Part shown: one piece after another, positions 34,703 through 36,628 of the stretch
How the letters are laid out: each line of letters begins with the position of its first letter
How positions within the stretch are numbered: position 1 is the stretch's first letter
Assembly: GCF_003334405.1 (NCBI RefSeq)
Contig: NZ_QOWM01000001.1
Strand: one strand, 5' to 3'
Length of the DNA: 64,000 nt
From: Escherichia coli
GTDB taxonomy: Bacteria; Pseudomonadota; Gammaproteobacteria; Enterobacterales; Enterobacteriaceae
Translations under genes and position numbers: made by a program
The notes under the pieces: model-generated
Seen by the model: only the letters and a program-made list of their open reading frames with translations
The model's database searches: none
Told to the model about the DNA's origin: nothing

Positions 34703-34727
34703 AGCTCCCAACTCCGGGAGCTTTTTT
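34703..34727 (+). terminator. purL rho-independent terminator
   Basis: Stem agctccc/gggagct followed by TTTTT. Confidence 0.8.
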
Positions 34728-34728
34728 G

Positions 34729-34842
34729 TGTCTGTAAATCACGACAATGGGTGGTTTGCCGTGTCGCTTTCTGGCGACACTTAACTCATTGATTTTAATA
34801 TTATCTAATAAGTTTATCTTAAGTTGTCTCTTTTTAGCGACA
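34729..34842. promoter_or_regulatory. three TGTC-N10-GACA sites (GlrR/QseF activator binding sites) upstream of glmY
   Basis: tgtc-tgtaaatcac-gaca (34729-34746), tgtc-gctttctggc-gaca (34762-34779), tgtc-tctttttagc-gaca (34825-34842). Confidence 0.8.
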
Positions 34843-34931
34843 CAGTGGCTGATTTACATTCAAACAGCGGAGGAGACATAAACCCCTCAAAGCAACGTAT
34901 AATCAGTACGTTACCAAACTATTTTCTTTAT

Positions 34932-34952
34932 TGGCACAGTTACTGCATAATA
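34932..34952 (+). promoter_or_regulatory. sigma54 (-24/-12) promoter overlapping an extended -10 sigma70 element
   Basis: TGGCAC-N5-CTGCA (34932-34947); tgcATAAT extended -10 overlaps it. Confidence 0.85.
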
Positions 34953-34958
34953 GTAACC

Positions 34959-35143
34959 AGTGGCTCATTCACCGACTTATGTCAGCCCCTTCGGGACGTG
35001 CTACATAAAATACGAATGACGCACAACAAGGTGCCTGCCGTCCAACTTCTGATATCAGCGTAGCTATATCAACCATCGGGCGAAACGTCGAGTTAGGCAC
35101 CGCCTTATTCCATAACAAAGCCGGGTAATTCCCGGCTTTGTTG
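34959..35143 (+). ncRNA. glmY: GlmY small RNA (GlmZ/RapZ decoy controlling glmS)
   Basis: Transcript start agtggctcattcacc about 12 nt after the -12 GC; ends at terminator hairpin aaagccggg-taatt-cccggcttt plus U-run; length about 185 nt. Confidence 0.85.
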
Positions 35144-35200
35144 TATCTGAACTTCCCCTCGGTTAGCATCAGGCTATTCGCGTCTGACGAGAGTAACACC

Positions 35201-36628
35201 TTGAAACGCTGGCCCGTTTTTCCCCGCTCATTACGACAACTGGTAATGCTGGCATTTTTGCTGATTCTGCTGCCCCTGTTGGTGCTGGCATGGCAAGCCT
35301 GGCAAAGCCTGAATGCGCTTAGCGATCAGGCGGCGCTGGTTAACCGCACTACGCTTATTGATGCCCGGCGCAGTGAAGCGATGACCAACGCGGCGCTGGA
35401 GATGGAGCGTAGTTACCGTCAGTATTGCGTGCTGGACGACCCAACCCTGGCGAAGGTTTATCAAAGCCAGCGCAAGCGTTACAGCGAAATGCTCGATGCC
35501 CACGCAGGCGTGCTGCCGGACGATAAACTCTACCAGGCATTACGTCAGGATTTGCACAATCTGGCTCAACTTCAGTGTAACAACAGCGGTCCCGATGCTG
35601 CCGCCGCCGCACGTCTTGAAGCCTTTGCCAGTGCCAATACCGAAATGGTACAGGCCACGCGCACAGTGGTGTTCTCTCGTGGGCAGCAGCTTCAGCGTGA
35701 AATCGCCGAACGTGGGCAATATTTTGGTTGGCAATCGCTGGTGCTATTTCTGGTGAGTCTGGTAATGGTACTGCTTTTCACGCGGATGATTATCGGGCCG
35801 GTGAAAAATATCGAGCGCATGATCAACCGTCTGGGGGAAGGGCGTTCTCTGGGCAATAGCGTCTCGTTCAGTGGACCGAGCGAGTTACGCTCGGTTGGGC
35901 AACGTATTCTTTGGTTAAGTGAGCGCCTGTCATGGCTGGAATCCCAACGCCATCAATTTTTAAGACATTTATCTCATGAATTAAAAACGCCACTGGCGAG
36001 TATGCGCGAGGGCACTGAATTACTGGCTGACCAGGTTGTCGGGCCGCTTACGCCAGAGCAAAAAGAGGTGGTGAGCATTCTTGATAGCAGCAGCCGCAAT
36101 TTGCAAAAACTGATCGAACAACTGCTTGATTACAACCGTAAACAGGCGGACAGTGCGGTGGAACTGGAGAATGTTGAGTTAGCACCGCTGGTGGAGACAG
36201 TGGTTTCTGCTCATAGCCTGCCCGCACGGGCTAAAATGATGCATACCGACGTCGATCTCAAAGCAACAGCTTGCCTGGCGGAGCCAATGCTGCTGATGAG
36301 CGTACTGGATAATCTTTACTCCAATGCGGTGCACTACGGGGCTGAATCCGGTAACATTTGCCTTCGCAGCAGTTTACATGGTGCGCGGGTTTATATTGAT
36401 GTCATCAATACAGGCACGCCCATTCCGCAAGAGGAACGCGCCATGATCTTCGAACCCTTTTTTCAGGGAAGCCACCAGCGAAAAGGGGCGGTGAAGGGCA
36501 GCGGTCTGGGATTAAGCATTGCCAGGGATTGTATTCGCCGTATGCAAGGGGAACTGTATCTGGTCGACGAGAGCGGGCAAGACGTTTGTTTCCGCATTGA
36601 ATTACCGTCGTCGAAAAACACGAAATAA
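35201..36628 (+). CDS. glrK: sensor histidine kinase of the GlrK/GlrR (QseE/QseF) system
   Basis: HAMP/HisKA (LSHELKTPL) and HATPase domains; 475 aa if started at in-frame TTG 35201; track ORF starts at TTG 35138 inside the glmY terminator. Confidence 0.92.
   Translation: MKRWPVFPRSLRQLVMLAFLLILLPLLVLAWQAWQSLNALSDQAALVNRTTLIDARRSEAMTNAALEMERSYRQYCVLDDPTLAKVYQSQRKRYSEMLDAHAGVLPDDKLYQALRQDLHNLAQLQCNNSGPDAAAAARLEAFASANTEMVQATRTVVFSRGQQLQREIAERGQYFGWQSLVLFLVSLVMVLLFTRMIIGPVKNIERMINRLGEGRSLGNSVSFSGPSELRSVGQRILWLSERLSWLESQRHQFLRHLSHELKTPLASMREGTELLADQVVGPLTPEQKEVVSILDSSSRNLQKLIEQLLDYNRKQADSAVELENVELAPLVETVVSAHSLPARAKMMHTDVDLKATACLAEPMLLMSVLDNLYSNAVHYGAESGNICLRSSLHGARVYIDVINTGTPIPQEERAMIFEPFFQGSHQRKGAVKGSGLGLSIARDCIRRMQGELYLVDESGQDVCFRIELPSSKNTK

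Follow-up and report, generated by a model that had tools for sequence, protein, structure and literature searches.

What does the interval between purL and glrK encode, and how are its product and the kinase gene that follows it expressed? In the window (the whole 64,000-nucleotide stretch of Escherichia coli DNA analysed here) the sequence-only reading had placed a GlmY small RNA (sRNA) locus in this spacer, with overlapping sigma54 and sigma70 promoters and three upstream GlrR sites, and had argued that glrK depends on read-through from glmY or on a promoter inside it. We conclude, with a probability of roughly 97%, that 34959-35142 is the glmY sRNA gene of E. coli K-12, accompanied by its complete published control region. 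The observation is thus confirmed and the GlmY interpretation supported, no evidence opposing the identification having been found, whereas the secondary inference on glrK expression is corrected. The locus is already known in full and has been dissected experimentally since 2009; its identity in the window, the positions of its elements, the motif statistics and the cross-species conservation are our own observations.

The identification rests on exact sequence identity. Window positions 34499-35399 correspond base for base, as the reverse complement, to 2690900-2691800 of E. coli K-12 MG1655 (NC_000913.3), so that the alignment to annotated glmY proposed by the sequence-only reading is exact and the ncRNA gene b4441 of the curated K-12 record (2691157-2691340) maps to 34959-35142, between the purL stop at 34643 and the TTG start of glrK (qseE) at 35201. 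The spacer (34644-35200) is 100% identical to that of K-12 MG1655 and was found in 5426 of 5426 complete E. coli genomes, and in the annotation of the identical K-12 sequence glrK(qseE)-qseG-glrR(qseF) lies directly downstream of glmY. Relative to K-12 glmY (formerly sroF or tke1; RF00128) we found no difference in sequence, coordinates, flanking genes, promoter or upstream sites. When the whole window was scanned with the Rfam covariance models, GlmY_tke1 (RF00128) matched at 34959-35106 over the full length of the model (146 bits, gathering score 33, E 1.5e-32). There is next to no chance that the interval instead codes for a small protein or represents the paralogous sRNA GlmZ. Mechanical open reading frames of 44, 79 and 76 aa are present, but no Shine-Dalgarno-like sequence lies within 20 nt of the start of any of the three, in agreement with the original claim that the spacer holds no protein ORF with a ribosome-binding site, and the small-protein reading was dropped on this ground. 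GlmY and GlmZ do share one Rfam clan; clan competition nevertheless retains GlmY at 146 bits, and the interval is identical to annotated b4441 at the glmY-specific place upstream of glrK, so GlmZ was likewise rejected on clan competition, synteny and identity. The coordinates of all features are collected in Table 1.

Table 1. Features of the purL-glmY-glrK region in window coordinates, with the basis for each.
Feature	Position	Strand	Basis
purL CDS, upstream neighbour	30756..34643	+	TAA stop 34641-34643; ORF list and RefSeq annotation of the identical K-12 sequence
purL intrinsic terminator, 8-bp stem AAGCTCCC/GGGAGCTT, 6-nt loop aactcc, T-run to 34727	34702..34727	+	Terminator scan; stem 34702-34723
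GlrR/QseF site ABS1, TGTCTGTAAATCACGACA	34729..34746	.	Pattern search; -230 to -213 from glmY start
GlrR/QseF site ABS2, TGTCGCTTTCTGGCGACA	34762..34779	.	Pattern search; -197 to -180; in register across comparison loci
IHF-consensus site 1 (distal), AATCAATGAGTTA on minus strand	34782..34794	-	WATCARNNNNTTR search
GlrR/QseF site ABS3, TGTCTCTTTTTAGCGACA	34825..34842	.	Pattern search; -134 to -117; in register across comparison loci
IHF-consensus site 2 (proximal), AATCAGTACGTTA	34901..34913	+	WATCARNNNNTTR search
sigma54 promoter TGGCAC-N5-CTGCA (-24 GG / -12 GC)	34932..34947	+	Sequence; -27 to -12 from start; sigma54 ChIP-seq site
Overlapping sigma70 -10 hexamer CATAAT, TG directly before	34946..34951	+	Sequence; hexamer named in PMC3045617
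glmY, 184-nt primary transcript; 34959-35106 is the 148-nt processed active form	34959..35142	+	NC_000913.3 b4441, Rfam RF00128, fold; lengths PMC4152352
glmY intrinsic terminator, core GCCGGG/CCCGGC with A/U-pair extension, tail CUUUGUUGUAU	35112..35144	+	MFE structure
Putative -35-like hexamer TTGTAT, glrK/qseE promoter	35141..35146	+	Our assignment; 17 bp upstream of the putative -10; inside glmY terminator tail
Putative -10 hexamer TAGCAT, glrK/qseE sigma70 promoter	35164..35169	+	Our assignment; 6 nt upstream of published start; in conserved block CTCAGTTAGCAT
glrK/qseE CDS, TTG start	35201..36628	+	Annotation of the identical K-12 sequence

The promoter and enhancer elements proposed from the sequence alone were all found where they had been placed, and as described in the literature (PMC3045617, PMC4152352, PMC4591121). 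Genome-wide sigma54 ChIP-seq assigned site OS24, TTGGCACAGTTACTGCA, to glmY (PMC4591121), and this sequence equals window positions 34931-34947 exactly. The sigma54 element had been called textbook, which is slightly generous, since the -12 half reads CTGCA where the consensus is TTGCA. According to PMC3045617 the sigma70 promoter has the -10 CATAAT, overlaps the sigma54 promoter and uses the same start site. The overlapping extended -10 that had been proposed therefore holds as to the overlap, but the published hexamer directly adjoins the TG, and an extended register results only if the hexamer is read as ATAATA. By our reading the sigma70 promoter has no good -35 (TTTCTT at 34923-34928). 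A simple promoter scan detected neither this promoter nor that of glrK, and their poor match to consensus agrees with their reported weakness; the only feature that the simple promoter and terminator scan detected was the purL terminator, so it neither supports nor rejects weak sigma70 promoters. The primary study of the glmY promoter and of glrK transcript mapping is reportedly that of Reichenbach et al. 2009 (Mol Microbiol 74:1054), whose results reach this account through later papers from the same laboratory.

Upstream of the promoter, the pattern TGTC-N10-GACA has three exact matches, which, as the sequence-only reading held, all lie upstream of glmY, within 114 bp (34729-34842), and a search of both strands showed them to be the sole matches in the 64-kb window. 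Dinucleotide shuffles of the window averaged 0.73 matches, and as many as three matches anywhere in the window turned up in 3 of 100 of them; clustering within 114 bp was never required of the shuffled matches, so the observed arrangement is far less likely than this rate. The site centres are 33 bp (ABS1-ABS2) and 63 bp (ABS2-ABS3) apart, equal to 3 and 6 helical turns, which implies that the three GlrR sites occupy one face of the DNA. The IHF consensus WATCARNNNNTTR occurs five times in the 64 kb, and two of these five consensus matches flank ABS3. According to published work, the sigma54 promoter is activated by GlrR (QseF) bound at the three TGTC-N10-GACA motifs, which lie over 100 bp upstream of glmY; the promoter cannot do without ABS2 and ABS3, whereas ABS1 is dispensable and less conserved (PMC3045617). 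Two putative IHF sites stand on either side of ABS3, and the sigma54 promoter loses all activity when the distal one is mutated (PMC3045617).

The same architecture recurs outside E. coli. A single pattern scan of species-representative genomes with a GlmY 5'-stem motif returned 120 loci, 109 of which adjoin purL and/or glrK; the 11 others, with neither gene nearby and including matches in Peribacteraceae, Micrarchaeota and Verrucomicrobiaceae, were set aside as probable chance matches. Downstream of 99 of these 109 matches lies a glrK homologue; among the remaining ten, several have too little downstream sequence to tell. With the window itself added, TGGCAY-N6-TGCW keeps a constant distance to the RNA start in all 110 glmY loci, which belong to Enterobacterales, and three GlrR-type sites (each with at most one mismatch) are in register in 86 of the 105 loci with enough upstream sequence, spaced by 33/63 bp in 57 loci and by 32/63 bp in 25.

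Folding, the other examination that the sequence-only reading had proposed, gave a stable structure for the 188-nt RNA, with a minimum free energy of -67.2 kcal/mol, a z-score of -5.66 against shuffles, and a terminator helix at 35112-35144. In an alignment of 61 sequences, 6 of the 29 consensus pairs are backed by compensatory changes, while the invariance of the GlmY 5' stem in this alignment is an artefact forced by the search pattern with which the loci were collected. The terminator is a strong 14-bp helix in the minimum-free-energy structure and is kept in 47 distinct Enterobacteriaceae sequences. A hairpin with a U-run about 185 nt downstream of the promoter had been claimed; the helix is there, but the U-run of its tail, CUUUGUUGUAU, is interrupted, which explains why the simple terminator scan missed it. 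The primary transcript of 184 nt is processed to a 148-nt form, which is described as the active RNA (PMC4152352) and with which the end of the Rfam match at 35106 coincides. By imitating GlmZ, processed GlmY ties up RapZ, the adaptor of RNase E, whereupon full-length GlmZ activates glmS; GlmY, unlike GlmZ, lacks the glmS-pairing region and serves as a RapZ decoy (PMC4152352).

Two features of the flanks were weighed as possible alternatives to this plain arrangement. The sequence-only reading had noted that the first GlrR site starts 2 nt past the T-run of the purL terminator, and this is exact: the T-run ends at 34727, followed by G34728 and by ABS1 from 34729. The terminator could on this account insulate the enhancer from purL transcription, or its T-tract could aid GlrR binding or DNA bending. 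A terminator does stand between purL and ABS1 in most genera examined, and about 9 of the 58 loci in which a simple scan found one, such as those of Buttiauxella, a Citrobacter sp. and Cedecea (loci L107, L063 and L064), have the stem end within 5 nt of ABS1; in E. coli GMF065, moreover, an IS200 element inserted in the T-run spares ABS1. We nevertheless consider a function of this kind very unlikely. In those 58 loci the stem ends anywhere between -2 and 175 nt from ABS1, and over 80 loci ABS1 lies 17 to 836 nt (median 76.5) beyond the purL stop. The hairpin recurs in position in several genera and is absent in others, its stem sequences are unrelated between genera, and in E. albertii and three Yersinia loci a whole extra ORF on the opposite strand lies between purL and the enhancer. 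To this may be added that ABS1 is the site reported as dispensable and less conserved, and that a reporter fusion from -238 to +22, whose upstream end falls inside the T-run and which therefore lacks the terminator stem, still shows full regulation (PMC3045617). Because distance and hairpin sequence vary so freely between genera, functional coupling was dropped as the main reading: the abutment is real, but it is intergenic packing against a dispensable site and not a coupled device. Two further observations concern the same spacer. A REP element situated between purL stop and terminator is truncated in K-12 but has its full palindrome in strain EC974. Long purL-glmY spacers of about 600-860 bp occur in E. 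albertii, Citrobacter sp. FP75, Yersinia and a Serratia; a tblastn search with the IS200 tnpA of GMF065 gave no match in them, and IS200 was dropped as their cause, the E. albertii and three Yersinia loci having the unrelated opposite-strand ORF.

The other flank bears on how glrK is expressed. The gap between the glmY 3' end and the glrK TTG start, stated at about 58 bp, measures 58 nt, and its shortness, together with the interrupted U-run of the terminator tail, is what would favour expression of glrK-qseG-glrR mainly by read-through of the glmY terminator, in one glmY-glrK operon. Such an operon is reported for Proteus mirabilis, where GlmY is described as lacking a Rho-independent terminator and the glmY-qseE spacer as lacking a promoter, so that the four genes are co-transcribed (PMC8745638); E. 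coli differs in having both a strong terminator and a separate weak qseE promoter. Read-through as the main route is accordingly most improbable here. The E. coli terminator is the strong 14-bp helix described above, and qseEGF is reported to have its own weak sigma70 promoter directly behind glmY, whose start site, 25 bp before the start codon, is window position 35176 (PMC6075780). In K-12, qseE'-lacZ fusions covering -70 to +107 and -480 to +107, the latter with all of glmY, have the same low activity, and RT-PCR indicates that read-through from glmY 'does virtually not occur' (PMC6075780). Another paper likewise describes glrK as 'transcribed independently' (PMC3045617). The two routes to glrK expression proposed from the sequence alone, read-through and a promoter within glmY, are therefore not upheld, since reporter fusions and RT-PCR point to a weak sigma70 promoter in the spacer. 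As we assign its hexamers from the sequence, the glrK promoter would sit in the 58-bp spacer, with at most its putative -35 (35141-35146) reaching the last bases of glmY and the terminator tail.

Conservation of the putative -10 supports an independent glrK promoter. A hexamer of the form TA-N3-T is present in 47 of 47 Enterobacteriaceae sequences (46 by search pattern and one, locus L038, by eye), as TAGCAT in 34, TACGCT in 7 by pattern as well as in L038, TACCCT in 4 and TAGTCT in 1. In 43 of 46 sequences the block that contains it, CTCAGTTAGCAT, is 30-31 nt away from the start codon, and this fixed distance across the Enterobacteriaceae also stands against the read-through explanation. TTGTAT is present in 33 of 42 sequences and its spacer to the -10 is 17-18 bp in 34 of 42, although the terminator alone could account for the conservation of TTGTAT. 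The start codon of glrK is TTG in 44 of the 47 sequences.

It is also very unlikely that the overlap of the glmY terminator tail with the putative glrK -35, or the abutment of the purL terminator on ABS1, is regulatory instead of simple packing. Were it so, heavy sigma54-driven transcription and termination of glmY could occlude or modulate the weak glrK promoter and so exert negative feedback on the kinase, and the purL terminator could insulate the enhancer. The published lacZ fusions speak against autoregulation in the conditions that they covered, strong GlrR activation lying beyond these.

Set among related systems, the E. coli locus is one variant of a shared layout. GlmZ (SraJ, RF00083) is a paralogous sRNA with homologous sequence and a three-stem-loop structure, and both RNAs bind RapZ. 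Many Enterobacteriaceae glmZ genes have the same arrangement of a sigma54 promoter with three GlrR and two IHF sites (PMC3045617), but E. coli glmZ, elsewhere in the genome, has a constitutive sigma70 promoter only (PMC4152352; PMC3045617). In the glmY-qseEGF locus of Proteus mirabilis the gene order is the same, and sigma70 and sigma54 promoters are likewise predicted to overlap, accompanied by three QseF and two IHF sites (PMC8745638).

As a working model, phosphorylated GlrR (QseF) would occupy the three sites 117-230 bp upstream of glmY, and IHF, at the two sites flanking ABS3, would bend the intervening DNA so that GlrR could make sigma54-RNA polymerase form open complexes at TGGCAC-N5-CTGCA. 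Classical sigma54 promoters that depend on an enhancer and use IHF, such as glnHp2 with NtrC and nifH with NifA, work in the same mode, an activator more than 100 bp upstream contacting the sigma54 holoenzyme through an IHF bend; glmY differs from them in its exactly overlapping sigma70 promoter with a shared start, and in its sRNA product. That weak sigma70 promoter (-10 CATAAT, start 34959 shared with the sigma54 promoter) would provide basal glmY expression. The 184-nt transcript would end at the intrinsic terminator and be trimmed to 148 nt, and the processed GlmY, by mimicking GlmZ, would sequester RapZ, leaving GlmZ intact to activate glmS translation when glucosamine-6-phosphate is scarce. 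Independently of this, glrK-qseG-glrR would be transcribed from the weak sigma70 promoter in the 58-bp spacer, with its start at 35176. Protein binding, promoter dependence, transcript ends, the RapZ decoy, the glrK start and the absence of read-through are taken in this model from the literature, whereas the assignment of the glrK -10 and -35 hexamers is our inference.

The value of this finding is as a positive control, in that a full sRNA unit with enhancer sites, sigma54 promoter and terminator was recovered from raw sequence alone. What the present analysis adds is modest: the glrK promoter block is now seen across genera, and the TTG start of glrK proves to be conserved. Both agree with reports that the kinase is present at very low abundance, and the conserved -10 block and TTG start together are consistent with a conserved, deliberately weak expression signal for it.

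The stretch between purL and ABS1, the outermost TGTC-N10-GACA GlrR/QseF site of the glmY enhancer, differs between E. coli strains. Between the purL stop codon and the purL terminator, window 34663-34690 (GCAGCCCGGATG/CGGCATTAAG) holds a REP-like palindrome that is truncated in K-12, whereas a full REP-like element (CCGGATGAGGC...GCCGCATCCGG) is present in strain EC974, a difference that probably explains why many E. coli matches begin at query base 26. An IS200/IS605-family tnpA element interrupts the purL terminator T-run in E. coli GMF065 (L002 1-620), with its junction at window 34722-34728, immediately 5' of ABS1; despite this insertion, ABS1 and the remaining glmY control region are undamaged. 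An additional opposite-strand ORF separates purL from ABS1, and so from the glmY enhancer, in E. albertii (L006; 193 aa) and in Yersinia (L012, L018 and L080; 145-183 aa); in Yersinia, the start of the ORF looks as if it may encode a signal peptide. Thus, purL-glmY adjacency is not universal.

On the other side of glmY, the glrK/qseE start (window 35201) is TTG in 44 of the 47 distinct Enterobacteriaceae sequences and is preceded by a conserved GAGAGT, features that fit the reported very low abundance of QseE. The spacer between the glmY terminator tail and the conserved TAGCAT block, the putative glrK/qseE -10, is longer by 11-12 nt, approximately one helical turn, in Pseudocitrobacter, Kluyvera, Phytobacter, Kosakonia and other genera (L024, L031, L037, L039, L066, L086, L113) and, therefore, the -35 element in these genomes cannot be the terminator tail. 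A simple scan from +100 to +260 relative to the GlmY start found no intrinsic terminator in Yersinia and Serratia (L012, L018, L019, L023, L029, L073, L080, L103, L106) or in the Rahnella loci, and glrK starts 320-660 nt downstream in these same loci, which may have a different glmY 3' end or be co-transcribed as reported for Proteus.

Two matches to the GlmY 5'-stem pattern occur in Enterobacteriaceae bacterium B14, of which L054 is the syntenic glmY; the other, L053, is not close to either purL or glrK and could be glmZ, the paralogous sRNA gene, or a second copy.

Two TGT-N12-ACA palindromes (window 15886-15903 and 15960-15977) lie 327-401 bp upstream of rpoE (start at window 16287, + strand), the second reported QseF/sigma54 target. 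This pair could be due to chance, because the whole window contains 19 such palindromes. The other RNAs matched in the window agree with the K-12 rrnG-purL-glyA region.

Other RNAs in the window with Rfam matches above the gathering score
RNA	Window position	Strand	Remark
5S rRNA	112-227		
ES036	11953-11995		
AsrC	18462-19293	-	antisense to rseC
rncO	22076-22290		
ohsC	25703-25779	-	
naRNA4	63778-63849		

The PGAP annotation across the glmY interval is 'none' in L001 5001-5557 (NZ_CP174267.1), as it is in all PGAP-annotated RefSeq rows of the E. coli genome comparison, whereas the curated NC_000913.3 carries the ncRNA glmY as b4441. We conclude that automated annotation misses the glmY sRNA.
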